DNA from: Bacteroidota bacterium
GTDB taxonomy: Bacteria; Bacteroidota; Bacteroidia; UBA8524
Assembly: GCA_008933805.1 (NCBI GenBank)
Contig: WBUH01000005.1
Span: 128,822-192,821 of the forward strand
DNA length: 64,000 nucleotides
Direction of reading: 5' to 3'
Shown: piece by piece, positions 22,264 through 64,000 of the stretch
Layout of the letters: each line of letters starts with the position of its first letter
How positions within the stretch are numbered: the stretch's first letter is position 1
The notes under the pieces: generated by a model
Told to the model about the DNA's origin: nothing
Seen by the model: only the letters and a program-made list of their open reading frames with translations
Database searches by the model: none
Made by a program: the position numbers and the translations under genes

Positions 22264-22860
22264 ATGCAAAAACAACTCCCTGTTTACAAATTAAAAATTA
22301 CCGATGAAGACCCTGTATCAGGGGTTGATTACGTAGCATTGGTAGATGTGCCCGCCACCGAATTTAATTGGGTGGCATTTAACCGCCAAAAACCCATGCA
22401 GTTTAAGGTGCAGCACGCCGAGCAACGCATTATCTGCGGTGCGCTGATGGTAGCCAACCTGCCCATTTACCGCAAAGAGGGCGACCGCGAGTACTACGTG
22501 GTATTTGATGAGCCTACCATTAAAAGTGTTTGTTATAAATACTTCCGCAACCGTTACACCGCCAATGTAAATGTAATGCACAACCCGCAGCAAAAAGTGG
22601 GCGGCGTGTACATGGTGCAAAGCTATTTGATTGACAAACAAAACGGCGTAAATGCCCCTGCTTACTACCCCGAATTGCCTGACGGCAGCTGGTTTGGATG
22701 TTTTAAGGTGGATAACCCGCAAGTGTGGGACAACTACATAAAAACAGGCAAACTGCAAGGGTTTAGCGTGGAAGGGATGTTTGGCCAAATGCACGTAACC
22801 GATGCATCGGAAATTATTATCCAACAATTAATTGAGATTATCAAAAATGAAAATGACTAA
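22264..22860 (+). CDS. Hypothetical protein, first gene of the phage head-like module (possibly prohead protease / XkdF-like)
   Basis: The ORF is confident. The function is tentative and comes only from its position ahead of the scaffold-like and capsid-like genes. Confidence 0.3.
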   Translation: MQKQLPVYKLKITDEDPVSGVDYVALVDVPATEFNWVAFNRQKPMQFKVQHAEQRIICGALMVANLPIYRKEGDREYYVVFDEPTIKSVCYKYFRNRYTANVNVMHNPQQKVGGVYMVQSYLIDKQNGVNAPAYYPELPDGSWFGCFKVDNPQVWDNYIKTGKLQGFSVEGMFGQMHVTDASEIIIQQLIEIIKNEND

Positions 22861-23440
22861 AGAAAAAATCCTGAAGGCCATTGGTACCGATGCCTGGGAT
22901 AAAATTAAAAAACTGGCCTTTGGCGAACAGCCCGCAGGCGAAGTAACCGAAACAATGCTGACCGACGGCACTGAAATTATGTACGAAGGCGCGCTGGCAG
23001 TAGGCACATTGGTGATGGTAATTACCCCCGAAGGTGAAATGCCCATTGCCGACGGTAAGTACGAATTGGAAGACGGTACCCGCTTCACCACCAAAAAAGG
23101 AGCGGTAGCAACCTTAGCCGCAGGCGGCGGAAAAGGCGTGAAAACAGGCTCGAAACCACAAACGGGCGCAATAAACCAAGCATCAGACCTGAAAGAGAAA
23201 ATAGAAATGATGTACCGACAGCACGAAGAAAACGCGGTGGAGTTGGCCGCTATAAAAAAGCAATTCAGTACTATGCAGGCCGATAACAAAGCCTTGCGCC
23301 AAAACCTGAGCAAAATTAGCCGCGTACTGGAAATACTGGTAGAAAACACCCCCGACGAGCCTATCCGCAACCGCCAGTTTGCCCATAACACCAATAACCC
23401 CACCAAAGCCGAGCGCATCGCCGCATTACTGAAAAGCTAA
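22847..23440 (+). CDS. Coiled-coil protein, putative capsid scaffold-like protein
   Basis: Starts at MKMTKEK and overlaps the previous gene by 14 nt. The C-terminal half is a long heptad-rich helix (EKIEMMYRQHEENAVELAAIKKQFSTMQADNKALRQNLSKISRVLE). Size and position are typical of a scaffold. Confidence 0.35.
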   Translation: MKMTKEKILKAIGTDAWDKIKKLAFGEQPAGEVTETMLTDGTEIMYEGALAVGTLVMVITPEGEMPIADGKYELEDGTRFTTKKGAVATLAAGGGKGVKTGSKPQTGAINQASDLKEKIEMMYRQHEENAVELAAIKKQFSTMQADNKALRQNLSKISRVLEILVENTPDEPIRNRQFAHNTNNPTKAERIAALLKS

Positions 23441-23567
23441 TTCATTGCTTTTGGGAATTGGCCTTTAACCCTTAGCAATGACACTATGCTTTCATCTGCT
23501 AAAAGCCAAAGGCTAACGGCTAATAGCGATTAAAAATACTATCAACTCAAAACGATACAACACAACA

Positions 23568-24539
23568 ATGAAACACAACTCAATTCCCCGATTGCTTAAG
23601 CATTCGTTTGCATACAGCATCAGCTCGCTGGATAACTATACCGAGCAAAACGTAGTACCCTTGGTAACCAAATCACTGTTTGGCAGCCGCACCGCCGAAT
23701 TGTTCCCCGTACAAACAGGTATCAAATCAGCCGAGGTCATCAACATCATGGACGACCAAGTGTATTTTCAAAGCGGCACAGGATGCGGCTTCACCGCCAG
23801 CGGCGATACCACCTTCACCCAACGCACCATCACTGTAGGTAAAATCAAAGTGAATAAAAAATGGTGTCCCGATGAATTGGAAAGCAAATGGACACAATTT
23901 TTGCTAAACGCAGGCAGCTACTACGAAACCCTTGTGCCCGAAGAAGCCCTTGCCGATTTTATGACCGCTATTATTGCGCAGGAAATGGAAAAAGCTTACT
24001 GGCGCGGTGATACCACCAGCGGCAACCCAAACCTGAACAAATTTGATGGTTTTGTAAAAATTATCGACGCTGCCGGAACTGCCGTAGCAGGTAACACAAG
24101 CGCGCAAACTTCTATCACAGTGGCTAACGCCGTGGCAATACACAACAATATCCTTACTGCATTGCCCGCAAGTCTTTTAGACAAAGACGATGTGGTAATC
24201 TTAGAAGGATGGGACACTTTCCGCAAATTGATTTTAGGTCTTCAAGACGAAAACAACTTCTTTTACGATGCTGCCGGACCTGATAATCACATTGCAGGCG
24301 AATTGAGGTTGCCCGGAACTAACATTCGTGTGGTGGCTGTTCACGGTCTAAACGATACCAACCGCATTTTTGCAGGCCGCAGCAGCAATTTCTTCATCGG
24401 CACTGATTTGCTGAACGATTTTGAAAACTTCAACATCTGGTACAGCAAAGACAACGACGAGGTGCGCATGAAGGCCCGTTGGAAAGCCGGCGTACAAGTA
24501 GCATTCCCCAACGAAATTGTACAATACACCAACGCATAA
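23568..24539 (+). CDS. Putative phage major capsid-like protein of 323 aa
   Basis: Size, Gly/Thr/Ala-rich composition and position after the scaffold-like gene. No motif-level proof is available without a profile or structure search. Confidence 0.35.
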   Translation: MKHNSIPRLLKHSFAYSISSLDNYTEQNVVPLVTKSLFGSRTAELFPVQTGIKSAEVINIMDDQVYFQSGTGCGFTASGDTTFTQRTITVGKIKVNKKWCPDELESKWTQFLLNAGSYYETLVPEEALADFMTAIIAQEMEKAYWRGDTTSGNPNLNKFDGFVKIIDAAGTAVAGNTSAQTSITVANAVAIHNNILTALPASLLDKDDVVILEGWDTFRKLILGLQDENNFFYDAAGPDNHIAGELRLPGTNIRVVAVHGLNDTNRIFAGRSSNFFIGTDLLNDFENFNIWYSKDNDEVRMKARWKAGVQVAFPNEIVQYTNA

Positions 24540-24656
24540 TAGCTGTTTGCTCTTGGCTCTTGGCAATTAGCTAAAAGCCAAATGCTAATTGCCAAAAGCA
24601 GCCAACCCAAAATAAAAATCAAAACTCTTAAAACATAAAACTTAACAACTAAAAAT

Positions 24657-25169
24657 ATGTCATGTGCATTAACCACAGGCTTCACGCTGGATTGCCGACA
24701 AAGCAACGGCGGTATAGAAGCCGTATATTTTACAGAAATAGCCAACAAGGCAACATTAACTGCTGCAAGCGGTGTCATCACTGCATTCACATTGGCAGCC
24801 ACTAAAAAATTCTTCAAATACGAGTTGAGAAAAAAAACAGGGCAGTTGGAACAAAACATACAGGTAAACAACGAAAACGGCACTGTATTTTACGAACAAA
24901 CTCTTACCGTTAAATTAGATAAGTTGGAGGTAAATAAACGCAACGAAATTTTGTTGCTGGCCAAAAACAACCTGATGGTAATTGTGAAGGATAACAACGG
25001 CAAATACTGGCTGGTGGGCGAAACCCGCGGTGCTTTGTTAAGTGCCGGAAAAGGAACCACAGGAACCGCCTTTGGCGATATGAGCGGCTTTGAACTAACC
25101 TTTACAGGTGAAGAGCCCGAATTGGCCAAAGAAGTTGACTCAACCCTTATTGCTACATTAACAGCATAA
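24657..25169 (+). CDS. Putative phage tail-tube / major-tail-like protein of 170 aa
   Basis: Small beta-rich protein directly after the capsid-like gene (VIVKDNNGKYWLVGETRGALLSAGKGTTGTAFGDMSGFELTF). Tentative. Confidence 0.3.
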   Translation: MSCALTTGFTLDCRQSNGGIEAVYFTEIANKATLTAASGVITAFTLAATKKFFKYELRKKTGQLEQNIQVNNENGTVFYEQTLTVKLDKLEVNKRNEILLLAKNNLMVIVKDNNGKYWLVGETRGALLSAGKGTTGTAFGDMSGFELTFTGEEPELAKEVDSTLIATLTA

Positions 25170-25214
25170 CCTTACAACGTACCGGTTTCATTCATCCGTT
25201 CTCCGGTATTTGTG

Positions 25215-25250
25215 CCCCGTTTGCAGCAATGCAAGCGGGGTTTTGTTTTA
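25215..25250 (+). terminator. Rho-independent terminator closing the head-like module
   Basis: CCCCGTTTGCA-gcaa-TGCAAGCGGGG stem of 11 bp with one mismatch, followed by TTTTGTTTTA. Confidence 0.65.
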
Positions 25251-25330
25251 TAGTGAAATGATAATCGCACGCAAGGGAGCAATAAAGCATAAATTTGTTA
25301 GTGCCTTGGTGTCTTAGCGGCAGAAAAACC

Positions 25331-25900: not shown

Positions 25901-25915
25901 CCCCGCAAGATACGG

Positions 25916-27412
25916 CTAAAACTCAAGTTCGGTATTAATGGCCTGCCCCATAAACGCATTGAAGTTAGACAAGCCGTTAAACAAGTGCATGGGCACAACA
26001 CTGATAATGAAATCGGTTTTGTTGTCAGACTTACGAACGCGCTTAGAAACAAGTGTCGATGTACCTGTCCATGGCGAAACCACACTGTTGTTTTCACGAG
26101 TAATACGGCCGTTGTACAATACCGAGTAAGCATACAGGTTGTTATCAATCGGCAACTCATACGGCCTGATACCTGTTAAAAAATTAGGGGTGCGCAAAAT
26201 TGGCCATGCGCCGCTCACAGGCAACAACGAGTCGTTTTGTTGCATCAAAAACGCATCTTTATTGGTAACAGGTAAATAAGATTTTATGGGGGTAAAGTCT
26301 AAGTAAGCAGGGTCGGTGGGTAAATTATCATTGGCAGCACTCACCACCATCATACGCCCGCCTTTATCAAAAAACACCGACGACGATTTTTGCAGTAATC
26401 CCAAACTGGCTTCGGTATCATCGCTAAACCACAATATGCGTTTAAAGAAACCGAATATCTGTGCTTGGGTAAAAGGGTCGGGAGATAGTTCTGTATAATT
26501 ATTTCCGTTCCGCTCGGTAGCCATCATCAAATCATACGGTTTTGAGGTTGCCGATGCCAACGCAGTTAAATAAAAGTTTTGCACCGATGCCCTTAAAAAC
26601 TGCGATTCAATAGCATTTACCACCAATATATCGCCTTGCGGTTTGCGTACAAACAAGGTGTAAGACGCAGTAAATGATGACTTACTGCCTGTTTTATCAA
26701 TGGCACGTATATACAGCTTGTTGCTGTCGTTCAGTTTTAAACCCCCAATGGTGCGGTTCCATGGGGTTTGGTTGCTTCCTAAATAAATATCGCAGTCGGT
26801 AATACTTCCGGTAAGGTTTTTACCCACTACTAATATATCGCGGATACCGGGGGCAATTTTAGTAAACGGACCGTTGGTATCGTTAAAACAAATCTCAAAC
26901 GAGTCCAGCGAAATATCACCGTCCAAATCGCCTGCCTGCCAAGTATAACGGATAGCGGGGAAACTACGCACAGGGGTGCGCGAAGGCACAGCCGACGATA
27001 CATAAAAGTTAACCGTAGGGGCTGAGTTTTTTACAGGGAAAAACAAACGAGCAGGAGAAGCATCAGCGTTGCCGTTGTTATCTATGGTACGAACTTCAAA
27101 ATCAAAATCAAACGTATCAGAATTGGTAGGGATTATCAGCGTAAAAACTGAGTCCTGCTTTTTGGTTGCCTGCCAAGCTGAATTGTTGATACGGTATTCA
27201 TACCCGGTAACAAAACCATCAGCATCAGTACCCCACCATTGCACCCGCACTTGCGAAGTGAAACGGTTATCCCCTTGCCTCACAATAGTATCAGCTACCA
27301 AATGTGTTTCAGGCGCGGTATTGGGTTTGGCAGTTCCGTCAAAATCCTTTTTGCAGGCGGCCAGCATTGCCACACAGGCCAATATGTATATGCAGCGAAG
27401 TACTCCCTTCAT
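25916..27412 (-). CDS. Hypothetical lipoprotein of 498 aa
   Basis: Lipobox MLAACKK. No recognisable domain. Lies 16 nt upstream of purN on the same strand. Confidence 0.5.
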   Translation of the reverse strand: MKGVLRCIYILACVAMLAACKKDFDGTAKPNTAPETHLVADTIVRQGDNRFTSQVRVQWWGTDADGFVTGYEYRINNSAWQATKKQDSVFTLIIPTNSDTFDFDFEVRTIDNNGNADASPARLFFPVKNSAPTVNFYVSSAVPSRTPVRSFPAIRYTWQAGDLDGDISLDSFEICFNDTNGPFTKIAPGIRDILVVGKNLTGSITDCDIYLGSNQTPWNRTIGGLKLNDSNKLYIRAIDKTGSKSSFTASYTLFVRKPQGDILVVNAIESQFLRASVQNFYLTALASATSKPYDLMMATERNGNNYTELSPDPFTQAQIFGFFKRILWFSDDTEASLGLLQKSSSVFFDKGGRMMVVSAANDNLPTDPAYLDFTPIKSYLPVTNKDAFLMQQNDSLLPVSGAWPILRTPNFLTGIRPYELPIDNNLYAYSVLYNGRITRENNSVVSPWTGTSTLVSKRVRKSDNKTDFIISVVPMHLFNGLSNFNAFMGQAINTELEF

Positions 27413-27504
27413 TCAACTGCAAACTTAGCTAATTTATACCTTTTGTTAAGTTAATGATATGTTAGCTTTTGAGATAAACTAATGCCGATTCTTACACGCA
27501 GCCC

Positions 27505-28542
27505 TTATTTGATAGACTTTAACAGCTCCGCAGCCTCTTTCTTCAATTTTTCATCTGTAAAAATCAACGACTCAAGCACTCTCTTAGCCTCAGCAGGGTT
27601 GTTTTGCTTCATTAGTGCTTTTGCCCTAAGCAGTTGGCCCTGCTCGTAATAGGTAAAAACCACGTTCTGCAATACCAGCAAACAACTGTCGTATAGTTTT
27701 GCATCAAAGTAACTTTGTGCAGTCAGGTAATTTAAAGAATCCTGTTGAGGGCTAAAGAAATTCAAGTTAGACACCTCTAAATTGTTATTAGAGATATTAT
27801 TATTCCTGAAATTGTTACTGACGTTATTATGTGAGGGATAAATATCCCTTCTCTGCTCCTTTTTAAGGGGTTGAGTAGCTTCTTTTTTATAATCAACTGC
27901 GGGTGGCGAAACTGTACTTTCTGTTATTACCACCTCTTTTTCTTCCATATCATCCGCACCCGCAACTTTTTCCGTTTCCTCTGCTTCACTTTTAAAAACA
28001 CTTTCAGGTAAAATGCTGCTTTCATCTTTACTCACAGAAACACTTTCGACATTCACAGGCGCACTATTAACTTCTCGTTCTTTTGAAGGAACAGAACCTG
28101 AGGGAACCGAACGTAATTCAGTAACACTATCTCTTTTGACAACGCTCTCTTCCACTTCAGAAGAAGCCGCTCCTTCCTCAGCCTTTCTTATATTCTCACT
28201 TTTAACTATCCTATCATCAGCAACGGGCGTAAGATTGTACCAACCTATGCCTAACCCAACCAGCAAAACAGCAGCGGCACTCCAATACCATAAAACCGCC
28301 ATTCGTTTCCGTTTGGGTTTCAGGTATTCGTCCACTTCTGCATTAATAGCAGCCACCGTTTGGGGCAGCATTTCGGGATGTGCAAGCGTATCAATACCTT
28401 CCTTCATATCCGCGCACAACTCACACCCTGCAACGTGTTGCTGCAAGGCTTGCAATTGGTTGGGGCTAAGCGTTTTTTGCGCATAGCCTTCCCACATCTC
28501 ATTGCTTATACATTGTGCTGTATCCATACTAGTAATGCCCAT
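27505..28542 (-). CDS. Zinc-finger (ChrR/ZAS-like) anti-sigma factor with a transmembrane segment and C-terminal TPR-like repeats
   Basis: HxxxCxxC motif (HVAGCELCADM), a single transmembrane segment, a low-complexity linker and a helical-repeat C-terminus. Overlaps the ECF sigma gene. Confidence 0.55.
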   Translation of the reverse strand: MGITSMDTAQCISNEMWEGYAQKTLSPNQLQALQQHVAGCELCADMKEGIDTLAHPEMLPQTVAAINAEVDEYLKPKRKRMAVLWYWSAAAVLLVGLGIGWYNLTPVADDRIVKSENIRKAEEGAASSEVEESVVKRDSVTELRSVPSGSVPSKEREVNSAPVNVESVSVSKDESSILPESVFKSEAEETEKVAGADDMEEKEVVITESTVSPPAVDYKKEATQPLKKEQRRDIYPSHNNVSNNFRNNNISNNNLEVSNLNFFSPQQDSLNYLTAQSYFDAKLYDSCLLVLQNVVFTYYEQGQLLRAKALMKQNNPAEAKRVLESLIFTDEKLKKEAAELLKSIK

Positions 28543-29126
28543 CCAAAAAGAATTCCTTTTTGTGCAAGGGCGTTTTTTAAATTACGTTTACCGTTTTGTA
28601 TATAACTCTTCACCTCATTAGCGGTGTAGCCCGTTTGCAGGCTTATCTCCTCATAACTTTTCTGTTTCAAAAAAAACAAATCAATACATTCCCGCTGCTT
28701 CTCATTCAACTGTGCCAATGCATTTTCCAACGCTTGCAGTTTGTGCTCTTTTTCCTCCCCTTCACCCTCTTGATGCAGTAACTCACCAAATTTCACAAAA
28801 AAAGTTTCACTTTCTTCTTCAGGCTCAGCTACCAGCACTTCCAGTGCGGGTTTGCGTAATTGCATCAAACAATAGTTTTTGCAAACACTGTATAGCCAAC
28901 TTTTAAAATTTTGCGGACTGTGCTTCAATAAGTCGGTAAACAGCTTTTCAAAAACAGCCATGCTGGCATCTTTGGCTGCGGCCTCATCCCTCAAGTATTT
29001 ATGGCATACCGTAAAACTAAGTAATGAGTACCGCTTAAACAGCTCACCCACCACCCATTTGTTATGGGTGTGTTGGTACTCTGCCACCAGTTCCTCATCC
29101 GTTTTATGGTGCTCAAATGCCGCCAT
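28506..29126 (-). CDS. ECF-type RNA polymerase sigma factor
   Basis: Region 2 (FEKLFTDLLKHSPQNFKSWLYSVCKNYCL) and region 4 (QKSYEEISLQTGYTANEVKSYIQNGKRNL). Confidence 0.75.
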   Translation of the reverse strand: MAAFEHHKTDEELVAEYQHTHNKWVVGELFKRYSLLSFTVCHKYLRDEAAAKDASMAVFEKLFTDLLKHSPQNFKSWLYSVCKNYCLMQLRKPALEVLVAEPEEESETFFVKFGELLHQEGEGEEKEHKLQALENALAQLNEKQRECIDLFFLKQKSYEEISLQTGYTANEVKSYIQNGKRNLKNALAQKGILFGWALLVWIQHNV

Positions 29127-44842: not shown

Positions 44843-44948
44843 ATTCCTCATAGATAACAGCCTAGCCTCTCTTTTCACTTATCTAATTAATAGAAAAGAT
44901 TCCATCCCCTTTGCAGAAACAATCCCCGCTGTTTCCAATTAACAGCCG

Positions 44949-52604: not shown

Positions 52605-55600
52605 TTACCACACCTGCCAGTCAAATCCTGCCGTTTCGGTGCGGCTGGTAGGTCGTTGTAAACCATCTGTCAGTCTCTCCACCTCAGTTCCTACAAATGT
52701 TTTTAACTCTTGTACGGTACAGGTTTGCTTTTCAGCTAATAACTGTAATACACAATAAGTAAATACCCCGTTTTGCAGCTCGCCCTTTTCATACGCTACT
52801 TGTGTTCCCGCCGCCGCTGATATAATTGTCGTCCCGGTACCTCTACCCACATCAGCAAACATTTCCTGCATCAGTTCAAAACTATTTTTCAGCCCCACAA
52901 CTTGCTCATCATCCACCAGCAATTCTATACCATTTTTGCCCCCGTTATTAATGTGCTTAGCAGTATCGGAGAAAACCACCCGCATGCTCTCCATCTCATC
53001 TTTATCCACCTCACCGCTGTGGCAGGCATCAATCAACAACAGCTTCCTGCGCATAGGCAAACTGTCAAGTAACTGTTCCATCATCGTATACGGCAACCCG
53101 CCCTCATTAGGGTTTCTAAAATTTACCATGTAAGTAGACAAATAATACTCCAGTTGTTTATCCAACAACCCATGCCCTGAGTATGAAACTATTAAACGGT
53201 CATTTACATTCGCTTGTAATAATCTGTTTCGCAATGCCATTACCTTTTCAAGCGATACATTGCTATTAAACAGAGTATCTATCACCAATTGGTCGCCAAG
53301 TTTTGCTTTTAGCCCCTCTGCAAAATTTACAATGTCTTTAACACTGTATTTGAGATTATGTCCCGGTTCTTTAAATTCATCAATTCCTATACCTATAAAA
53401 TAGATTTTAGAAGGGTTCGCTTCGTACTCAGCAACGATAGTAATTGTTTCGGTGGCGGATTTTACGCCGTTTACATCCGTTGCATATACTTGTACCACAT
53501 TATTGCCTTTTTGCAACTTCACTTTGCAATTCACCTTCGCTTCTCTTCCACCTGAAACGGGCATCCCCTCTTTGCCAAACACAGGTACTCCGTTAGCCAT
53601 AACTTGCAGTTTACTAACATCCGCATACAACGAACTGAGGGCTATTTCTAACACTACTTCATCAGAAGTTAGCACCAACGGAAGTTGGCTTTTGTTTACA
53701 ATTTTTACCTCAGGTTCTTTACCAATAATGTTCTCTATTGTTTTTGCTTTAATTCTCCGCAAACGTTTCGCAACAGCCCCCTTCAATAACTCGTTGAACG
53801 CTTCGTTAGACGACCCCGAAAGCAAAACAACCGTATCCGGACGGTTAAAATAAATATCATATTCAACGGGTAAATACCCTTTGCCTTTATAAGCAAACGC
53901 AAGGTTATTAACCGCTGATTTATCCCCTCGATAAAGATAATTATTTGCTACCTCAATAAACTTGCGACCCGCATAAGAGGTAAAATACAACTGTGTATTA
54001 TCATTTAATACCGTGTACATTTCTTCTTCAGTAGAAAACGTGAAACCATTACTTAAATGATTTACGTGAAAAAACGATTCACGCGGGGTTTGCTGCCACA
54101 ACAACTCACGATTGCTTAACTTAGCTACATACAGCTCGCTATATGCTTCAAATGCAACTCTATCCGCTCGCATATCTACTTCAAACGAAAAGAACCGACT
54201 ATCAGTAAATTCATACTTCTCTTTGGGTGTCGCTACTGATAAGTCAATACTATAAACCTCATTAATCAATTCACGACCATTTTTGGCTGTCCAATAATTG
54301 GTGCTATACCACAACACATCAAGGGTCTTATCAAACGTAAAATATCTTACCTCTACATCCTTTTTAAGCTCTATGGTAAATACTTTTTTAGCGCTCACCC
54401 AATCCCATATTTCTATACTGTGCCGCTTTTCTCCGGCATTTATTATTGCTAAGTATTTTTTTGAAGGGGAAACCGCAAACAATTCACCTGAAAACAGCCG
54501 TTTTAATTTATTTATCTCCAAAATCACCCCATTATTATTCACTACCATTACAGCATTATCACCTGCCAAGGCATAATTCCCCTCTGTCAATTTATTTACA
54601 TTAATAATAGATTTGGGAAGCTTTTCTTCACTAATATTTTCTGTCGAAAATATTGGCCCTAAAATATTCAACTCAGCATTAAAATCAATAGTATAACTAC
54701 TTAGTTGCATTTTATTAAACAGCAGCTTACACCACTTAGTCTGATTGTATTTAATAATGGCAAGGGAATTTTCTTTACTATCCAACACAAACTTGCACCA
54801 TTTGCAAGCTATAGTAGTAGGTTGGGTTTTATTGCTTGAAAATACCACAAGAGTATCTGAACTATAATCCGCTTTATAGGCTATGATGTGGTAATTTCCC
54901 TGTTCATCAAATACCTTAAAAAATTGCGAGTATTTATCCTGTAATTGAATTTTTCGGAATGCAGGTTGGAATTTTTTGCGGTTAATATCGTATAAATCTT
55001 GATTGCGAGATGAAGCAAACAAATCCTGAATATCATCCGTTGCTGAAAGTAATTGTGTGCTGTCAGTACTCCAACAATAAAACTTAGCCATGTTGAAGGA
55101 AATAGGATAATGTAATGTATCCGCAGTAGATAAACTTACTTTTAGTAAACGACTAAAGCCATAATTCACTACTACACTATTTTCATTTGGGTACTTTAAC
55201 ACCCTAAATATTGAAGACGAAGAGGCTAACATACTGTATTTATCAACAGGATCTTGCCCATCTAATAATAATTCGTGTTCGCGCTTCCCGTCTTTATAAA
55301 TACATATTCGTCCGTCGCCATAATCACCCCCCACATATTTAGCTGCTTGCGAAGGGATTGCAACTATACTTTTACCAACAGCTAACAGTTGATGAATGGC
55401 TGTGTCAAAGGCTCTGAACAAAGTGTTTTGTTGCAAACTCTCATTAATTCCGACGACATCTCCCGATAACGTCCCTGCCAATATTACACCATTTTGGGCC
55501 TGTGCTGCGAATGTTGTTATAAGATGTGCTGTTGGGGCAGTTTGTGTAACGGTTTCTGTCTTGGCATCAACTAAATATAACTTACAGTTAACAGGTCCTA

Positions 55601-56111
55601 AGTATTCGTTTTTCCCCTTATTATCAATTAAATAACTTATTGTGCTGTCCTTCTTCATAGGGTAGGTTTTAGTATGAATAAGCACTTTGGTTTCATCATC
55701 AGGCCACAGGGTAAAACTCTCTATTATCTCAGGAAATTTAATTTGGTTAAAAAAAGTATCCACCTTGCCGGTAATAAGATCGGCTTTTACTAATACCGAC
55801 CCAGTAGAGATCAATACTGTTCCATCAGCCATTAATGCTGTTTTGCCCACTCCTTGTGCCCCCCAACTACCTGCCTCAAATACCAACGTGCCTACCTGTA
55901 TTTTAGAGGTTTGGTCAATCAACGTGTAATTATTCCCGCTAATTACTAAAAACCAACTACCCTTTGCACTCGATTGCACATCCTCCAACCCTAAATCAAA
56001 CGTTACTTGGCTCACCAATTTGGGCATGGTTTGCCCATAACCCACCGTTACAAGAAAAACAATAGTAAAAAGAAGTATGAAGCGATGTATTGCCTGTTTC
56101 ATTACAGGCAA
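52605..56111 (-). CDS. Secreted 1168-aa protein with a beta-propeller (WD40/PQQ-like) region and a C-terminal caspase-like (peptidase C14) domain
   Basis: Signal peptide. The caspase domain, at about 52605-53420, holds a His in YSGHG and the catalytic Cys in LLLIDACHSG, so both dyad residues are present. Confidence 0.7.
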   Translation of the reverse strand: MPVMKQAIHRFILLFTIVFLVTVGYGQTMPKLVSQVTFDLGLEDVQSSAKGSWFLVISGNNYTLIDQTSKIQVGTLVFEAGSWGAQGVGKTALMADGTVLISTGSVLVKADLITGKVDTFFNQIKFPEIIESFTLWPDDETKVLIHTKTYPMKKDSTISYLIDNKGKNEYLGPVNCKLYLVDAKTETVTQTAPTAHLITTFAAQAQNGVILAGTLSGDVVGINESLQQNTLFRAFDTAIHQLLAVGKSIVAIPSQAAKYVGGDYGDGRICIYKDGKREHELLLDGQDPVDKYSMLASSSSIFRVLKYPNENSVVVNYGFSRLLKVSLSTADTLHYPISFNMAKFYCWSTDSTQLLSATDDIQDLFASSRNQDLYDINRKKFQPAFRKIQLQDKYSQFFKVFDEQGNYHIIAYKADYSSDTLVVFSSNKTQPTTIACKWCKFVLDSKENSLAIIKYNQTKWCKLLFNKMQLSSYTIDFNAELNILGPIFSTENISEEKLPKSIINVNKLTEGNYALAGDNAVMVVNNNGVILEINKLKRLFSGELFAVSPSKKYLAIINAGEKRHSIEIWDWVSAKKVFTIELKKDVEVRYFTFDKTLDVLWYSTNYWTAKNGRELINEVYSIDLSVATPKEKYEFTDSRFFSFEVDMRADRVAFEAYSELYVAKLSNRELLWQQTPRESFFHVNHLSNGFTFSTEEEMYTVLNDNTQLYFTSYAGRKFIEVANNYLYRGDKSAVNNLAFAYKGKGYLPVEYDIYFNRPDTVVLLSGSSNEAFNELLKGAVAKRLRRIKAKTIENIIGKEPEVKIVNKSQLPLVLTSDEVVLEIALSSLYADVSKLQVMANGVPVFGKEGMPVSGGREAKVNCKVKLQKGNNVVQVYATDVNGVKSATETITIVAEYEANPSKIYFIGIGIDEFKEPGHNLKYSVKDIVNFAEGLKAKLGDQLVIDTLFNSNVSLEKVMALRNRLLQANVNDRLIVSYSGHGLLDKQLEYYLSTYMVNFRNPNEGGLPYTMMEQLLDSLPMRRKLLLIDACHSGEVDKDEMESMRVVFSDTAKHINNGGKNGIELLVDDEQVVGLKNSFELMQEMFADVGRGTGTTIISAAAGTQVAYEKGELQNGVFTYCVLQLLAEKQTCTVQELKTFVGTEVERLTDGLQRPTSRTETAGFDWQVW

Positions 56112-56137
56112 GTTATAAATTTCAGTTGTACTTGCCG

Positions 56138-57526: not shown

Positions 57527-57596
57527 AATTCAGAAAAATTTGACGCAAAACTATGCCTACACCAACGGACAAAAAATGATGAATATCAGCACATTC

Positions 57597-59903
57597 TTAC
57601 CAGCCGCCACCGCCGCCACCGCCTCTGCCACCGCCACTATACCCCGAACCTTTTGACGCACTGCCTGAATTAGTAGATTTTGAGACTGAACTTTTTGAGC
57701 TATTGCTTTCCGAGGCTCGTAGAGCTTCCGCTTCTATTTCTTTCTTTTTATAATCCACTAACTGCTTCAACTCTTCTGTCCTTCTGCTCAACATTTCAGC
57801 GGCAGCCCTGTCGCTACTATGCCTGAAAATTGTCAAATCAGGTCTATGTTTCTCTTCGCTTTCAGTAGTATTACTGTTGAGTTCCTCTGTTATTTCAGTC
57901 AACCTTCTTTGATAAAAGTTACTGTAATCAACCCCCCAACTTCTTCTCATACTGTTTGATAACAGATAATAACCACCGGTAGAGTAAACAACGCTGTTTA
58001 CCATTGTATTCTCTGCAAACCCGTCTGCTTCCAATGATTTCTTAATCGAATTTCCAAACGCAGAGGTCCATTCCTTTAAGCAATCTAAGGCAATTGCATA
58101 GGGCAACATTTTCTCAGGCACAAAATCCGCGTTAGGCTTGTTAATAGTGTTCATCCGCTGCGAGTCGGCAGTCGCTAAAAACATTCTCAGCCCCAAAATT
58201 TTGTTCAACAATGTTTCACCCGCTTGCGTGTACTTGGTATATCTTAAATCCAAAAGTTTGTGAACCAAGGCACACAACACAATTCCGGTTAAATAATACA
58301 CAAAGGTTAACGCCGAAGGCTTATAGTGAATAGTCATTAATAAAACTGAAATTGCCAATGAAACGCCGATTAGAACACGTCCCCATATTTGCCCGCCTCT
58401 TTTATAGACAAACAATGCAGCATTCTTATTTTTTGAGTCACAATACCTTTTCACCTGTGCATCAAAATAGGCAACTTCTTCACTTGCCTTGTCCGGCTTA
58501 ATATGGCCCGTCACAATTATTTCGGCATCCTCTATTAGCAGTTGTTCTGCCTCCTTACCGAAAGGTACTTTTTTATCAGTAGCTGCAATTAAATAATTGC
58601 CGCTACCGCTGCTATCTGCCGAAATAGTCAGGTATTTATTTACAGCTAAGTTTACCAAACTTGCAATGGTTTGGGATGGCTCATACCCTTTGTGGTAAAT
58701 ATAGCCTGCAAGTGCCGGGTTTACATCGTCGGGGGCTGTAAACTCAGGCACTATATTGGCCTTATTTTTATTCGAAGCCTTTAGTTTTCTCCAACCAAGT
58801 ATTACAAGGTTTCTAATCAGTAACAGGATAGCAACCCATATCATAAAAAAGGGGCCGCTGTTAGAAAACAAAATAATTGACCATTCAGGTTCACGGGAAA
58901 TAATGCCTTCAGGGATTGAGCAAGCAATGGTTAACCCTTCATTCTTTAGCATTCCTCCGTTTGCAGCAAAAACAAGACTTGAGGTTTTCGCGTCAAATTT
59001 ACCGTAGCAGTCTTTGGCAGAATCTCCATATTTTCCGGTGTAGCAAGAGAAAGAGTTTACTGTTGACCCCTCAGGAAACTTAACTGCGCAACTAATACTG
59101 TCAATATCAAACTCCCAACCATTCCCATTTACGTTCCAATACAGTTCATCATACCCTTCACCATACTTAAATGGCCTTTTTACAGTATAAATTATTTTAT
59201 AAACATGACTGCCAAATGATAAAATGGAGTCAGGATTACCAATATATAGCAGTTTACTTCCTGCTTCAAAATCATCGTCATATTTTACAGGCTGGTTGTT
59301 CAAGAGGATGCTGTCAACCCTAACAATCATTTTAAAATTAAGTCCTGAGCCTATATCATAACTATCAGGTATATACCTGACAATTCCTTTATTTATAGAC
59401 CCTGTTTCTGTGTTTAAAACCGCTATGGTCTCCACAACACGCATGGTTCCATCCTGGCGGATTTCAAAATCGGCGTGAAATGATTGAATTTTATCTGCCG
59501 CCAAACCGGCCTCAAAAACACTTTTAAGGTCATCCATCGCCTTAATTGTTGCCTTTGCTATATGTTTAGTGAGTTTACCGAACTCTTTAGCCTTCCCTTT
59601 TTTTGTAGCTATGGACTCTTTGCCGGGTACTACGTCTGCTCTATACAAAACCTCATCCCAAACTTTTTTATTAAATCCTTCTTTAACAGAATTAAAATAT
59701 TTTTCGAATTTTTTATTATCGAATTTGGAATCAGAAATTTTATTTGAATACACTAAAATACTGGCATCTATCGCACTATCTATTTGATGATCTACACAAT
59801 AGTGAAGCTGTTTTCCGTTACCATCTAAATATTTTTGTGTTTGGCTATACGATACATTAAAAATACCAATAACCAGCAGCAGGAAAAGTAATACCCTCAT
59901 CAA
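57597..59903 (-). CDS. DUF2207-family membrane protein
   Basis: Signal peptide, a large extracytoplasmic domain, transmembrane helices, and a characteristic poly-Gly C-terminus (GGGRGGGGGGGW). Confidence 0.65.
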   Translation of the reverse strand: MMRVLLFLLLVIGIFNVSYSQTQKYLDGNGKQLHYCVDHQIDSAIDASILVYSNKISDSKFDNKKFEKYFNSVKEGFNKKVWDEVLYRADVVPGKESIATKKGKAKEFGKLTKHIAKATIKAMDDLKSVFEAGLAADKIQSFHADFEIRQDGTMRVVETIAVLNTETGSINKGIVRYIPDSYDIGSGLNFKMIVRVDSILLNNQPVKYDDDFEAGSKLLYIGNPDSILSFGSHVYKIIYTVKRPFKYGEGYDELYWNVNGNGWEFDIDSISCAVKFPEGSTVNSFSCYTGKYGDSAKDCYGKFDAKTSSLVFAANGGMLKNEGLTIACSIPEGIISREPEWSIILFSNSGPFFMIWVAILLLIRNLVILGWRKLKASNKNKANIVPEFTAPDDVNPALAGYIYHKGYEPSQTIASLVNLAVNKYLTISADSSGSGNYLIAATDKKVPFGKEAEQLLIEDAEIIVTGHIKPDKASEEVAYFDAQVKRYCDSKNKNAALFVYKRGGQIWGRVLIGVSLAISVLLMTIHYKPSALTFVYYLTGIVLCALVHKLLDLRYTKYTQAGETLLNKILGLRMFLATADSQRMNTINKPNADFVPEKMLPYAIALDCLKEWTSAFGNSIKKSLEADGFAENTMVNSVVYSTGGYYLLSNSMRRSWGVDYSNFYQRRLTEITEELNSNTTESEEKHRPDLTIFRHSSDRAAAEMLSRRTEELKQLVDYKKKEIEAEALRASESNSSKSSVSKSTNSGSASKGSGYSGGGRGGGGGGGW

Positions 59904-59907
59904 TTAA

Positions 59908-60462
59908 TTATTTATCGGTAAAGTTAACTTTAGGGACTTTCTTGGCTTCAGGGTCTTCTGTAAAAAACACTTCGGGCTTAAACCCGAACATCCCGGCGAT
60001 AAGCACCTTAGGAAATACCGCTATCGATTGATTGTACTCCCTAACAGTACCGTTAAAATACTTGCGAGCTTCTCTTATATGCTCTTCTGTTTCGGTTAGT
60101 GTGTCGTACAAATCTTTAAAATTTGAATCTGCTTTTAGCTCAGGATAGTTCTGCGATATAGCAAATACATTTCGCAAAGCCGAGCTAAGACCAATCGCTA
60201 CCTCGCCTTGCTCTTTTGCTCCAACTGCAGCAATACCCTTACTGTGCCACATAGAAATTTCTTTCAAAATCTCTTTCTCGTGCGAGGCGTACCCTTTTAC
60301 AGTTTCAACAAGATTCGGTATCAAATCAAGTCGTTGTTGTAAATATGCTCCCAAAGTGCTTTGGCCTTCATGCACCAAAATACGTTCCTTTACTAACTCG
60401 TTGTAAATACGTACTACAAAAAATAAAATAGCTAATAAAACAATTCCTAATACAACTACCAT
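59908..60462 (-). CDS. LemA-family protein
   Basis: N-terminal transmembrane segment and the LemA signature (YNELVKERI ... QRLDLIPNLV). A LemA gene is commonly paired with a DUF2207 gene. Confidence 0.85.
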   Translation of the reverse strand: MVVVLGIVLLAILFFVVRIYNELVKERILVHEGQSTLGAYLQQRLDLIPNLVETVKGYASHEKEILKEISMWHSKGIAAVGAKEQGEVAIGLSSALRNVFAISQNYPELKADSNFKDLYDTLTETEEHIREARKYFNGTVREYNQSIAVFPKVLIAGMFGFKPEVFFTEDPEAKKVPKVNFTDK

Positions 60463-60634
60463 TTTAATTACAGTGATTTTAAAGTGTAATAATACTCCAT
60501 TCTACTATTTAATACAAATAAAGCGATGGTTTAATACCCTTCATTGTTAAAAAAGTAAACGCCTAAAATGTAGAGATATACATTACTTTATAATTTTTTT
60601 TGAAACAAAAACATCCCGTGCCAATTACAGGGGG

Positions 60635-61030
60635 ATGATACTGATAAATAAAGGCACCAACAACTTGGTTATCTTCACTCTGAAGGAAAAAACCACCCGC
60701 CCCAATCCTAAATACCTCTTCGAGTTTAGTAACTCTCAAACTAACGAAAGTATTACTTGTATCGCAGCCGATACCTCTGACTACCCCGAGCGTTATAATA
60801 GTTTTGAGATAGTAGAAATTACCAGCCCCAGCCCGCTGCTAGCACAGGTAGAGCTTACCCCCTCAGGTTTTTGGGAATACAAGGTATATGCTCAAGACAG
60901 TGCTACAAACTTACAACCCGCCAATGCCGACGAACTGGTTGAAACAGGGTTAGCCTACGTGGTGGGCACCGCTGAAACCACCTATACTTATAATGACCAA
61001 CCCACTAACGCATTTATATACAATGGATAA
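60635..61030 (+). CDS. Hypothetical beta-rich protein of 131 aa (phage-like locus 3)
   Basis: ORF only. Overlaps the next gene by 8 nt. Confidence 0.35.
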   Translation: MILINKGTNNLVIFTLKEKTTRPNPKYLFEFSNSQTNESITCIAADTSDYPERYNSFEIVEITSPSPLLAQVELTPSGFWEYKVYAQDSATNLQPANADELVETGLAYVVGTAETTYTYNDQPTNAFIYNG

Positions 61031-62276
61031 GCAAAAACACTTTTTTACAACCTTGCAAGTGCCTACGTGGCATAAACCGCCCCGATTTAAGGAAAGCCGC
61101 CGTTTCGATTGGGTTAATTATGGTGAAGCGAACGATTACCCCGACTATCTGATAAATCTTTTTAACGGTTCGCCTACCCATCAAGCCATTGTGAGCGGCA
61201 AAAAAGATTATATTTTTGGTAAAGGGGTAGAAATACCCAATAGCCCAAACACCGCTGATGCTGCTAAACTGCAACAGTTAATTCACAGAGCCAACCGCTT
61301 CGAATCGTTGAACCAATTGCTTGAAAAATTGATTCTAGATTATGAGCTTTTTAATGGTTTCGCTGTAAAAATCTACCAAAACATTGTTACAGGTAAGATT
61401 AGCGAGATGTACCACGTAGATTGGGCTACTTGCCGTATCAACGAAGACGCATCGGTAATTTACACTTCAAAACAGTGGACTGAGCAACAGTCGCTAACGA
61501 ACAAGTTTGCTGGAAGTACCCGTCAACCGGAAGACTTAAGAGGCCTCCCCGCTTTCGATATCAACGTTCCTCAGCGTGAAAGCATTTTGTATTTCCGTGA
61601 GTATAGCCCACAAATGAAGGTGTATCCATTACCGGGTTATTTAGGTTGCAATGCTTCCATTGAAACCGAAATAGAAATCAGTAACTTTCATCTAAACAAC
61701 ATAAAAACAGGGTTTTCTGCAGGCACCCTGCTTACATTTACTAACGGTGTGCCCACCGAAGATGAGCAACGGGATATTGAACGTCAGGTAAAGCGCAAAG
61801 TGGCGGGAACGGATAATGCGGGTGAAATTATATTATACTTTACAGACGGTGTAGAAAGTACCCCTCAAATATTACAACTGCGCCCCAACGATCTTGATAA
61901 ACAGTACGACCAACTTAAACAAACAGTAATGGACACCATTTTTGTGGGTCATAAAGTTACCAGCCCAATGTTGTTTGGTGTTAGGGCACCCGGCCAACTG
62001 GGAGGAAGAAATGAACTAAGGGAAGCTTACGAATTGTTTCAAAACACCTACGTCAACAAACGCAGGCAAACTATTGAGCAATTGTTGAAAAACCTTGCTG
62101 AAACCAATGGCATCAGTACGCCATTATGCCTTACTCCAACCGAACCGATCGGTTTAGGAATGTTGTTGAGCGAGCAGGACATTAGTGAAGTACTTACTTC
62201 TGATGAAAAACGTCGCTACTTGGCACAAATAGGTTTCCCTATCACTGTCAGCGATCCATCAATTGCAGATAATTAA
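61023..62276 (+). CDS. Putative phage portal-like protein of 418 aa
   Basis: Size and context only. No P-loop is present, which argues against a terminase. Tentative. Confidence 0.3.
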   Translation: MDKQKHFFTTLQVPTWHKPPRFKESRRFDWVNYGEANDYPDYLINLFNGSPTHQAIVSGKKDYIFGKGVEIPNSPNTADAAKLQQLIHRANRFESLNQLLEKLILDYELFNGFAVKIYQNIVTGKISEMYHVDWATCRINEDASVIYTSKQWTEQQSLTNKFAGSTRQPEDLRGLPAFDINVPQRESILYFREYSPQMKVYPLPGYLGCNASIETEIEISNFHLNNIKTGFSAGTLLTFTNGVPTEDEQRDIERQVKRKVAGTDNAGEIILYFTDGVESTPQILQLRPNDLDKQYDQLKQTVMDTIFVGHKVTSPMLFGVRAPGQLGGRNELREAYELFQNTYVNKRRQTIEQLLKNLAETNGISTPLCLTPTEPIGLGMLLSEQDISEVLTSDEKRRYLAQIGFPITVSDPSIADN

Positions 62277-62317
62277 TCCATTACAAATTTTCTTACACTA
62301 TCAATTAGCAAATCCTT

Positions 62318-62893
62318 ATGGAACAGGTCTATTTTATATCCGCCGACAGGCTGAAAGAAGATACCGTGATTAATGAGAACACGGATAATAAGTTAATCTC
62401 ACCCACAATACTCATGGTGCAGGATATTTATATACAGGGTATTATCGGCACCTCATTATACAACGAGTTGAGAACTCAGGTAAAGGCCGACACTGTAACA
62501 GCCCTTAACCAAACATTGCTTAATGACTATTTACAACCGGCTATAAAACACTATTGTATGGCCGAACTGTGTCTGCCGCTTACGTATAAGTTCATGAATA
62601 AATCCATCGTAACAAAAAATAGCGAGAACAGTGTTACTGCCTCACCGGAACAACTAAGTCAGATAAAAAACTATTACCTGAACCATGCGGAATGGTACGC
62701 GAAACGTATTGTAAAATACCTGCAGCAAAATCAATCTAAATACCCTTTATGGCTGAGCGGAAATACTACTATTGATGCCATTCACCCAAGAATCAACACT
62801 TATCACACAGGTATGTTTTTGGGAAATACTCGTGGGAATTCATTCTCAACCTCATTACCTATTGATAACGGCGAAAACAATTGTTGCGAATAG
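62318..62893 (+). CDS. Hypothetical protein of 191 aa (phage-like locus 3)
   Basis: ORF only. Confidence 0.35.
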   Translation: MEQVYFISADRLKEDTVINENTDNKLISPTILMVQDIYIQGIIGTSLYNELRTQVKADTVTALNQTLLNDYLQPAIKHYCMAELCLPLTYKFMNKSIVTKNSENSVTASPEQLSQIKNYYLNHAEWYAKRIVKYLQQNQSKYPLWLSGNTTIDAIHPRINTYHTGMFLGNTRGNSFSTSLPIDNGENNCCE

Positions 62894-62962
62894 TTATGAA
62901 TGAAAAGAGAATAAAAAAAGAAAACATCCAAAAATTACTCAATTATCTAGAAAAGAAAGACC

Positions 62963-64000
62963 ATGCAGTTTCAGACAAAAAATCAGGTAATAACAAAACT
63001 AAGGCAACTGGCTGAAAGTCATTTACTAGTCCGTGGGTTTGGCTATGGTGACCGTTGGGAACTTGAATCAGCTATGACCAAAGTGGATGGTACAACAATC
63101 GGACTCACCCATCCTTCAAAGCAGCCGTTTATGTGGGTTACCCCCATAATAGCCCGTGTAACCGAAGGTAGTCTCTTTTATGATTTTGAAATAATTGTAG
63201 GCGACTTGGTGAAACGGGATGAAAGTAATGAACTGGAAGTGGAGAGTGATACTTTACTTATTTGTTTGGACATCCTCTCAAAACTAAACGATGAAAGCTA
63301 TGAATGGGCTCTTTCAAAGCAAAGTAATCTTCAACCCTTTACCGAAAAGTGGGACAGCGAATTTACGGGCCACATTATGAATGTATCGCTGGAGTTTATG
63401 TTTGATTATGACTATTGTCAAGTTCCATTTACACGTCCGGATGAAGACATCACTGCATTTCTTGCGGCTACAGGCATTGACGATGAAACACAAATATTTG
63501 CCATTACTTATTTAGTAACGCAACTAAAAGAAAACGGACTTTGGAACAAAATGCACGCTCTATACCCGTTTGTAGGCGGTACGGCAAATAGGCACAGTAT
63601 AAACCTAAAAAATCCGGCTCAGTATAAAATAACGTGGAGTCCAACGGGAGTGACCCACAACGCAAATGGTATAACCGGAGACGGAATAGCCGGCTATGGC
63701 GACACCGGTTATATTATCGCCGCTGCAAACAAAGACAACTTCCATATGTCAGCTTATATAAGGAATGATGTTAGTGCTGGGGCTAAATGTGCTATCGGAG
63801 GCACTAGTGACAGTAATGTAATTCAACTCTTACCGTTTCAAACGGGAAATCTCTTCCAATCTTCAATAAACCAAAATACTGCATCAACAGCTTCAAATGT
63901 TTCTTCGAAAGGAAATTATATAGGTAGTAGACTTGCCCCAAATCGTTCAATTGCGTATAAAAATGTCACAAAATTATTTGAAAACACCACTGTGAGTACT
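62963..64000 (+). CDS. Hypothetical protein, at least 346 aa, 3' end outside the window; phage structural-protein-like
   Basis: I translated this by hand from the ATG at 62963. There is no stop codon before the window end. The conserved-looking N-terminal domain is followed by a Gly/Ser/Thr/Asn-rich region typical of fibre or adaptor proteins. Confidence 0.4.
   Translation, partial: MQFQTKNQVITKLRQLAESHLLVRGFGYGDRWELESAMTKVDGTTIGLTHPSKQPFMWVTPIIARVTEGSLFYDFEIIVGDLVKRDESNELEVESDTLLICLDILSKLNDESYEWALSKQSNLQPFTEKWDSEFTGHIMNVSLEFMFDYDYCQVPFTRPDEDITAFLAATGIDDETQIFAITYLVTQLKENGLWNKMHALYPFVGGTANRHSINLKNPAQYKITWSPTGVTHNANGITGDGIAGYGDTGYIIAAANKDNFHMSAYIRNDVSAGAKCAIGGTSDSNVIQLLPFQTGNLFQSSINQNTASTASNVSSKGNYIGSRLAPNRSIAYKNVTKLFENTTVST

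Follow-up and report, generated by a model that had tools for sequence, protein, structure and literature searches.

Gene transfer agents (GTAs) such as that of Rhodobacter capsulatus (RcGTA) and its counterparts in other Alphaproteobacteria are encoded by phage-derived head, tail and terminase genes that reside in the host chromosome without replication or integration genes. RcGTA has a main cluster of about 15 kb and accessory loci, so that several separate loci need co-regulation, in which CtrA and GafA act; its genes are inherited vertically under purifying selection across the clade, and its capsid protein has the HK97 fold. Here we describe a comparably organized set of genes, referred to as the element, in a stretch of 64,000 nucleotides from a Bacteroidota bacterium (GenBank assembly GCA_008933805.1, contig WBUH01000005.1). 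This stretch is called the window, its positions serve as coordinates throughout, and labels beginning with L denote contigs of relatives. With a probability of roughly 0.6, we regard the element as a domesticated, co-regulated particle system of the GTA type, and it is a strong candidate for the first GTA-like particle system in Bacteroidota.

The element shows no detectable sequence relation to any described GTA and has only the general HK97 fold in common with RcGTA. By sequence, the relatives that we found are phages of Bacteroidota and uncultured phages related to them; Vibrio phages gave weaker matches, confined to the portal. Multi-locus RcGTA is the nearest functional model, and Inhavirus-like phages are the nearest relatives by descent. 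Unlike in RcGTA, the core structural genes of the element are themselves split into separate loci, and regulation appears to rest on a phage-derived sigma factor resembling the extracytoplasmic function (ECF) type.

Two GTA-like systems outside Alphaproteobacteria also occupy conserved chromosomal operons: FpGTA of Faecalibacterium (Nat Commun 2026), with two operons about 125 kb apart and packaged fragments of 8.4-8.9 kb, and PBSX of Bacillus subtilis, which packages 13.4-kb fragments (PMC12946183). They differ from the element in phylum and phage ancestor. Moreover, packaging has been measured in both, whereas packaging and transfer by the element are predictions from its genes. Our literature searches returned GTAs or GTA-like systems in Alphaproteobacteria, Desulfovibrio, Brachyspira, Methanococcus, Bacillus (PBSX) and Faecalibacterium and none in Bacteroidota, in agreement with an initial annotation of the window, made from its sequence, which knew of none in this phylum.

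Capsid-forming phage-inducible chromosomal islands (PICIs) and other satellites resemble the element in having chromosomal genes for a prohead protease, scaffold, HK97 capsid, portal and small terminase subunit (TerS). Satellites form one continuous mobile island equipped with an integrase and a replication module, and take the large terminase subunit (TerL) and tails from a helper phage. In contrast, the element encodes TerL itself along with probable tail proteins, its loci are dispersed and it lacks an integrase, and we rejected a satellite or capsid-forming PICI on these grounds.

Loci and gene products of the element

The initial annotation had recognized three phage-like loci, a head-like module at 22.3-25.2 kb, a tail-like operon at 37.7-44.3 kb and a portal-like locus at 60.6-64 kb. 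All three lie where it placed them and show real phage homology in Pfam and PHROG searches. Its count was too low, as the element comprises five to six loci once a sigma-factor operon, the p216/p183 pair and a packaging locus are included (Table 1).

Table 1. Features of the element and its left border, by position in the window
Feature	Position	Strand	Evidence and remarks
AAA_14/DUF4143 ATPase gene, 3' end; left boundary	1-369	+	
GT4-like glycosyltransferase, phage-derived; last gene of regulatory operon	17955-19067	-	Pfam Glyco_trans_4_4 and Glycos_transf_1, 1e-7 to 9e-6
p171, predicted ECF-like sigma factor, phage-derived; proposed activator of structural loci	19045-19560	-	
p103, small open reading frame of regulatory operon	19796-20104	-	only in window species and L025 (tblastn)
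p77, first gene of regulatory operon	20312-20542	-	66% conserved in distant species L035
AC-rich tandem repeats	22003-22197	+	72-bp unit x2.3 with nested 7-, 14- and 17-nt units; just 5' of head promoter
Head promoter-like motif	22221-22263	+	TTGCACAC-N12-CCAATTACAGGG-N3-ATG; conserved in eight species
Prohead (head maturation) protease, XkdF/S78_2 type	22264-22860	+	Pfam PF14550 2e-11; phrog_24921 1.5e-26; phrog_3017 3e-8
Coiled-coil protein, scaffold position	22853-23440	+	between protease and capsid genes in all relatives; weak coiled-coil Pfam matches only
Major capsid protein, HK97 fold	23568-24539	+	phrog_11320 2e-25; also a 'virion structural protein' PHROG
p170, conserved structural-module protein	24657-25169	+	phrog_19091 9e-23; always directly 3' of capsid gene; homologues in all related phages
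Terminator-like hairpin closing head operon	25214-25251	+	12-bp stem, 7 GC pairs, then T run
Terminator-like hairpin closing tail operon	37598-37619	-	9-bp stem, 6 GC pairs, then T run
p809, tape-measure-like or internal virion protein	37666-40095	-	tape-measure phrog_24676 4.9e-11; 49% identical to L029 orthologue; 26% to L050 phage protein at same position
p979, large structural protein, probably tail or receptor-binding	40114-43053	-	29-35% identity over 800-990 aa to a ~900-1000-aa protein in the structural block of related phages; weak C1q-like segment
p401, structural protein; first gene of tail operon	43050-44255	-	22-29% full-length identity to phage proteins at same position; 71% to L029 orthologue; weak cerebellin/C1q-like match
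p216 promoter-like motif	44907-44948	+	GCAGAAACA-N13-CCAATTA-N7-ATG
p216, homologue of phage gene 3' of TerL	44949-45599	+	synteny and homology to related phages
p183, fast-evolving, always 3' of p216	45675-46226	+	phrog_29822 2e-5; 24% homologue at same position in phage L050
Portal/neck promoter-like motif	60593-60634	+	TTGAAACA-N13-CCAATTACAGGG-N2-ATG
p131, precedes portal gene	60635-61030	+	homologues 5' of portal gene in phages L008, L009, L011, L016
Portal protein, 417 aa	61023-62276	+	phrog_33693 1e-34; PF04860 1.8e-9
DUF6712 protein, probably neck/adaptor	62318-62893	+	PF20459 5.9e-25; always 3' of portal gene, synteny in all phages
p400, ~400-aa protein; reading frame runs past window end	62963-64000	+	N-terminus homologous to ~145-aa phage protein; 59-73% identical to 384-406-aa orthologues in L029, L020

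An HK97 fold had been suspected for the putative capsid gene and is borne out by an AlphaFold2 model built from an alignment of 38 homologues (pLDDT 74.6, pTM 0.72). Its top Foldseek matches in the PDB are mostly phage capsids with some encapsulins (E ~3e-12 to 1e-10, probability 1.0), and include the RcGTA capsid 6tb9 (E 4e-11) and the capsid-forming PICI capsid 9gyi. An encapsulin nanocompartment was considered and rejected, as the capsid gene lies amid genes for a prohead protease, a scaffold and other phage structural proteins and the element also has a portal and a terminase. From its position, the coiled-coil protein between protease and capsid probably acts as the scaffold. A search of ten element proteins against NCBIfam gave no match, nothing useful emerged from the PDB for the sequences of the capsid protein, p979 and p401 or for profiles of p171, p170 and p216, and p170 matched neither database in profile searches.

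The portal suspected at 61023-62276 is supported by its PHROG profile match, while the Pfam Phage_portal score of 37.7 bits falls just below the 39.1-bit gathering cutoff. Portals of L027 (19728-19985), L020 and L029 bear a C-terminal winged-helix extension (HTH_24) of about 80 aa that has been deleted in the window lineage (62200-62320). An identical 417-aa portal in the independent assembly L049 confirms this loss, and BLAST finds no such extension in the related phage sequences examined. The C-terminal part of p400, further downstream, could be fibre-like, which is a guess only. In the tail-like operon, the tape-measure protein proposed by the initial annotation has a tape-measure PHROG match in p809, and the tail assignment stays a probable one; the tail-tube fold that it suggested for p170 stays a conjecture.

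TerL is absent from the window, whose first 20 kb hold purH and other host genes and no terminase. Positions 1-435 align at 87% with 8154-7720 of L032, from the closest sister species, where the packaging locus lies just beyond the genes found at the left end of the window (purH, DUF2167, beta-lactamase and PMT_2). Moreover, L036 carries the exact beta-lactamase of the window, and its genes run TerL (a fragment, at the start), TerS (GP3_package), p88 and p102 on the minus strand, then AAA_14, then purH. From this alignment and gene order we place the packaging locus (p102, p88, a 138-aa TerS and TerL; minus strand) about 0.9-3 kb to the left of the window, with its TerS-TerL part about 1.5-3 kb from the edge. 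The packaging locus likewise adjoins purH in L051, from another species, and sister genomes encode an intact 395-aa TerL (Terminase_3), ahead of which lie p102, a ~90-aa protein and a small terminase of the GP3_package family; TerS evolves faster than TerL. The initial annotation had noted neither integrase nor terminase at its loci. No integrase, replication gene or endolysin was found at any locus of any species examined, but TerS and TerL do exist just outside the window, and a terminase that stands apart in this way fits a GTA encoded by several loci.

The first packaging gene, p102 (L036 959-1267), encodes two predicted membrane segments and is holin-like, and p90 or p93, the gene that ends the portal locus of sister species (L020 2384-2656; L029 3228-3509), encodes an N-terminal membrane segment and a coiled coil; these proteins are possible lysis components. 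Between species in which the capsid protein is 83-90% identical, p183 is only 33-42% identical, a rate that would fit a protein contacting the host or recipient cell. Five further reading frames (25916-27412, 27505-28542, 44303-44842, 46317-47147 and 47144-47923) had no PHROG match and are not counted as parts of the element because they are not syntenic with it in other species.

Descent from one phage and inheritance across a host clade

Among 2496 homologues of the capsid protein in public data, the only cultured relatives are the Nonlabens (Persicivirga) phages P12024S and P12024L (genus Inhavirus, 35.7 kb). Their genes run TerL, p216-like, p401-like, p979-like, a 550-660-aa protein, protease, scaffold, capsid, p170-like, p131-like, portal, DUF6712 and a protein of about 145 aa, and in P12024S the lysis and replication genes lie elsewhere on the genome. 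The IMG/VR contigs L011 and L016 keep the block from TerL to portal in one collinear, same-strand order, and parts of it are collinear in L008 and L009 (scaffold to portal), L018, L039, L041 and L044-L046. The closest phage, L050 (a 33-kb Logan contig with a TerL 62% identical to that of the element), has MazG and NinG early genes 5' of a block that runs p171-like, p102-like, a further gene, TerS, TerL, p216, p183, p401, p979, p809-like, protease, scaffold, capsid and p170, where the stretch examined ends. Because phages keep the same genes collinear, the three loci first noted, p216/p183, the operon at 17955-20542 and the packaging locus can all be read as fragments of one block. By homology and gene order, then, every piece is derived from one Inhavirus-like phage, through a prophage that is ancient and not recent.

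The two Inhavirus phages and L009, L011, L016, L039 and L050 share with the element homologous TerL, p216, p401, p979, protease, scaffold, capsid, p170, p131, portal and DUF6712 genes in the same relative order. P12024S also has a sigma-like gene 5' of the terminase (gp33, Sigma70_r2), and p171 homologues occur in L039 and L050. In these phages, however, the genes form a single contiguous block to which the element is only 26-62% identical, whereas core genes separate the pieces of the element, four of these pieces have a conserved promoter of their own, and the lysis and replication modules are missing. The domesticated clade is discrete, since the next-closest sequences are genuine phages, with capsid proteins at most 56% and TerL at most 63% identical.

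We scanned one genome per GTDB species and added two further assemblies (L020 and L023). Six species representatives and these two assemblies have a capsid protein 82-100% identical; most of the species representatives are metagenome-assembled genomes named 'Bacteroidia bacterium', but the set includes two complete chromosomes of 3.8 Mb. At least seven species of this one uncultured Bacteroidia clade, which occurs in activated sludge and cyanobacteria-associated cultures (e.g. samples SRR10172992 and ERZ1756069), keep all of the genes, with the reading frames (about 20) intact and a different arrangement in each species. The conserved locus positions that the initial annotation had considered were not found, and the loci are instead reshuffled. 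In L029/L007, the portal locus (minus strand) and head locus (plus) lie back to back, followed by LpxR and one other gene, p183/p216 (minus) and the tail operon (plus), all within about 20 kb. TerL lies about 25 kb from this cluster in the L029 genome, with purN-p498 in between, and the element there spans about 44 kb. In L020 the order is portal (minus), head (plus), isocitrate dehydrogenase, LysR, Sbt_1, LemA, DUF2207 and then p183/p216, and in L026, L027 and L023 the head locus is followed by LemA, DUF2207, one to four host genes and the portal locus. The window and L025 have the head locus followed by purN, the portal locus lying 35 kb downstream in the window; the L025 stretch ends short of it. 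Throughout the species compared, the element stays in the purH/purN neighbourhood.

Pairwise Nei-Gojobori dN/dS ratios, for which synonymous sites are saturated in the more distant pairs, were 0.013-0.059 for the protease, 0.025-0.069 for the capsid protein, 0.06-0.09 for p170, 0.09-0.16 for p131, 0.16-0.18 for p216, 0.10-0.24 for the scaffold and 0.11-0.30 for p183, with 0.028 for p171 against L025. Between the window and L025, dS of element genes (0.34-0.93) falls in the same range as that of purN, purH, the 2-oxoacid dehydrogenase E2 gene and the beta-lactamase gene (0.56-1.13). Against the most distant species, purN is 66% and p498 73% identical, and the capsid, protease and portal proteins are 80-88% identical. 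The species fall into the same groups in the identity matrix of LemA as in that of the capsid protein, and RelA and the portal are 82.7% and 80.4% identical, respectively, between L020 and L029. The genes of the element are phage-derived, intact and under purifying selection, and have co-diverged with their host over at least seven species. This pattern fits long vertical co-inheritance under constraint and not decay or repeated recent integration. An assembly chimera was rejected, as the same layout recurs in independent NCBI, ENA, JGI and Logan assemblies, including the two complete chromosomes.

In the complete chromosome OZ244977.1 (L035 6248-7333) the GT4-like gene is called as two open reading frames, which probably reflects long-read error and could be early decay. 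Three public records that carry the Bacteroidia genome (L024, L028 and P0001) are labelled as Agrobacterium sp., an uncultured Burkholderiales and Oscillatoria amoena. We regard these labels as the result of mis-binned or contaminant contigs because Por_Secre_tail proteins of the type IX secretion system and genes with Bacteroidia relatives surround the loci.

Promoter-like motif and candidate sigma factor

A two-block motif, TG(A/C/G)(A/C)ACA-N12-13-CCAATTA-N6-8-ATG, lies within 60 nt 5' of the first gene at four loci (protease, p131, p216 and p102) and is kept in every species examined, eight in the case of the head motif. The exact 12-mer CCAATTACAGGG has two copies in the window, both directly before a first gene (head and portal). 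A position weight matrix trained on sequences of the other species only was applied to the window, with 100 shuffled windows as background; it ranked the head site first, at 33.5 bits, and the portal site second, at 19.9, against a shuffled maximum of 18.5, and the packaging site in L036 scored 22.5 bits. In its upstream block the motif is similar to the 'AAC' -35 element known from ECF sigma promoters. Since CCAATTA lies only 6-8 nt from the start codon, transcription from the motif would yield leaderless or near-leaderless mRNAs, and its conservation suggests one sigma-controlled regulon. An inherited phage promoter was rejected as its origin, as related phages have no CCAATTA at equivalent positions; L050 has a loosely similar GTACAA...AGGGT-ATG before its p216-like and protease genes.

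The candidate activator is p171. ECF sigma factors are the top Foldseek matches of its AlphaFold model (pLDDT 78.7), two of 12 database homologues bear the JGI label 'sigma24 family', and its phage homologue in L039 has weak Sigma70_r4 matches. BLASTP gives no alignment between p171 and gp33 of P12024S, and the sigma link therefore draws on the fold matches and on the homologues in L039 and L050. Taken together, p171 is probably ECF-like. Its operon begins with p77, just 5' of which is a TAnnTTTG-type box (TACTTTTG), and ends with the glycosyltransferase gene, a 32% homologue of which stands directly 5' of TerL in phage contig L016; in L035 this gene adjoins the packaging locus. The host ECF sigma factors at 17072-17620 and 28506-29126 were rejected as dedicated regulators, being ordinary ECF factors that do not stand beside the element in the contexts examined from more distant species.

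Tracts similar to the AC-rich repeats also precede the head promoter in other species. The window contains 10 copies of the octamer ACTATCAA, where 2.3 would be expected by chance; four copies are in intergenic regions of the element (22016, 22086, 23538 and 62297), two of them inside the AC-rich repeats 5' of the head promoter. Copies 14-23 nt 5' of the capsid and DUF6712 genes hold conserved positions in other species.

The core genes that the initial annotation saw between the loci are confirmed by Pfam, namely purN, fur, purA, E2, iscA/U/S, a glyoxalase-family epimerase and a beta-eliminating lyase. Further intervening genes encode an ECF sigma factor, short-chain dehydrogenase/reductase, LigB, AhpC, DUF2207 and LemA, as well as a Fic/DOC protein (31051-32184) and a 1168-aa protein with a C-terminal caspase (Peptidase_C14) domain (52605-56111). 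The LemA and DUF2207 pair adjoins an element locus in five of eight arrangements (window 57597-60462; L026 11782-14741; L027 11769-14729; L020 13631-16709): it is 3' of the head locus in three species, beside p183/p216 in L020 and beside the portal locus in the window, and the DUF2207 protein of the window shares only about 32% identity with the rest. Promoters of the element adjoin defence-like genes whose presence differs from strain to strain or between species (21859-22263; 1-369; L001 7787-8695; L002 3135-4043; L035 7516-8835). DUF4238 stands between HxlR and the protease in some strains and is absent from others, one strain has an AbiC-like gene, and an AAA_14/DUF4143 or SLFN_AlbA_2 gene, depending on the species, lies upstream of the packaging locus.

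Function of the element and competing explanations

We hypothesize that an ancient Inhavirus-like prophage was domesticated and lost its replication and integration genes, and that local rearrangements then split it up, leaving five or six transcription units across 67 kb or more: p77-p171-glycosyltransferase, p102-p88-TerS-TerL, p216-p183, p401-p979-p809, protease-scaffold-capsid-p170 and p131-portal-DUF6712-p400. p171 would switch on four of these units through the shared TGnAACA-N12-13-CCAATTA promoter, the products would assemble into DNA-filled, probably tailed particles, and the particle would package host DNA in the manner of a GTA. With TerL at about -3 kb and the far end past 64 kb, the loci cover 67 kb or more, against 35.7 kb for the genome of P12024S and mostly 28-36 kb for related viral contigs, and a particle of this kind probably cannot carry the whole system. 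The scattering of loci among core genes, and with it a particle probably unable to carry them all, would make a GTA-like role with packaged host DNA the expected outcome.

Several features that define a GTA are present. Capsid, portal, packaging and tail genes are chromosomal and phage-derived (the tail genes by PHROG match and synteny), and vertical inheritance and purifying selection extend over at least seven species in identity matrices and dN/dS. Near the structural genes there is no replication, integration or lysogeny module: Pfam labels in the window and, for eight species, in flanks of 10 kb around the loci include no integrase, replication protein, repressor or endolysin. In the window itself, the reading frames scanned had no integrase-family Pfam match, and no tRNA gene or Rfam RNA family was found. 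We rejected an intact or recently inactivated prophage, as core genes lie between the pieces, no integrase, tRNA or replication gene was found, and the arrangement differs between species. A tailocin or other phage-tail-like bacteriocin was likewise rejected, since the element has conserved genes for capsid, portal, protease, TerS and TerL. The initial annotation had proposed a dispersed, domesticated, GTA-like phage set and not one prophage, and this view holds up with intact genes, purifying selection, co-divergence and the lack of an integrase. It had also named, as an outcome that would speak against it, one rearranged recent prophage with integrase and terminase nearby. Part of that picture is what we observe, as a terminase lies about 1.5-3 kb to the left and all pieces trace to one ancestral prophage, but the prophage is ancient and no integrase accompanies it.

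A number of points weigh against a GTA-type particle. Particles, packaged DNA and transfer are predictions from genes, as the promoters are from nucleotide sequence, and the p401-p979-p809 operon has no copy of the motif. The tail assignment draws on one PHROG tape-measure family and synteny without a demonstrated tube, sheath or baseplate fold, and p170 and p216 have no PDB or NCBIfam match that would bear on it. No endolysin was recognized, only the holin-like p102, with two membrane segments, and p90, with one membrane segment and a coiled coil. The portal of the window lineage has lost its C-terminal domain, and the L029 capsid gene (10001-10971 of the complete chromosome OZ244977.1) is interrupted by the loss of one nucleotide from an AAA run, which is probably a long-read assembly error and could be early decay. 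In L029, moreover, the element spans only about 44 kb and may be self-packaging if the capsid is large.

Some of these points would suit inert remnants of a defective prophage that rearrangement has scattered and that have not yet decayed. All pieces come from one prophage and remain within a neighbourhood of about 45-70 kb, the window-lineage portal is truncated, the L029 capsid has a frameshift and the endolysin is not found. At this divergence, however, neutral remnants would show stop codons and deletions, whereas about 20 reading frames are intact in at least seven species with synonymous sites near or past saturation and dN/dS of 0.01-0.24, head genes are 83-88% identical where purN is 66%, and every species keeps the promoter motif at four loci. 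Inert remnants are thus very improbable, a reading that dN/dS and the intact reading frames largely refute. We give even less credence, indeed almost none, to an active temperate phage, or several independent recent integrations, that only appears to be interrupted. The structural and packaging gene set is complete and close phage relatives exist, yet single-copy core genes (purA, purN, iscSUA, E2 and fur) separate the pieces, the arrangement varies by species while remaining in the same purH/purN neighbourhood, neither integrase, replication or lysogeny genes nor an att or tRNA site was found, the layout is the same in independent assemblies including both complete chromosomes, and the closest true phages are only 48-62% identical.

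A more serious competitor, although we consider it unlikely, is that the element is domesticated and selected for a role other than gene transfer, such as defence or satellite-like interference with Inhavirus-like phages, a killing particle, or packaging of one specific locus. Purifying selection and retention show that there is a function without showing which. Variable defence-like genes (DUF4238, AbiC, AAA_14/DUF4143 and SLFN_AlbA_2) sit beside the promoters of the element, and related active phages are abundant in metagenomes, as the 2496 capsid homologues attest. TerS is kept and evolves faster than TerL, and sequence-specific packaging is therefore possible. Against such roles, a complete packaging motor, portal, capsid and probable tail under strong constraint make DNA-filled particles the simplest outcome, satellite-type integrase and replication modules are missing, and killing particles of the tailocin type need no capsid, portal or terminase.

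A domesticated particle system of the GTA type thus remains our preferred explanation. Whether it is a true GTA in the strict functional sense, with the predicted packaging and transfer of DNA, is a question on which we lean slightly toward no. With similar reserve, and only tentatively, we propose the fuller account of a first Bacteroidota GTA, arising from an independent domestication of an Inhavirus-like phage and comprising five or six loci, with a sigma-factor regulon acting through leaderless promoters that were copied or retained at each locus.

Few independent origins of GTAs are known (Rhodobacterales, Bartonella, Caulobacter, Brachyspira, Desulfovibrio, Methanococcus, PBSX and recently Faecalibacterium). 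If particles are made, this list would gain a further phylum and a further phage ancestor from the element. The element would also show with unusual clarity how a prophage comes apart and is rewired, with sister species representing stages from the nearly contiguous arrangement of L029 to the fully dispersed one of the window. The sigma factor and promoter provide a testable handle for inducing the system. More generally, as the clade lives in activated sludge and cyanobacterial cultures, such a system could matter for gene flow in these communities.

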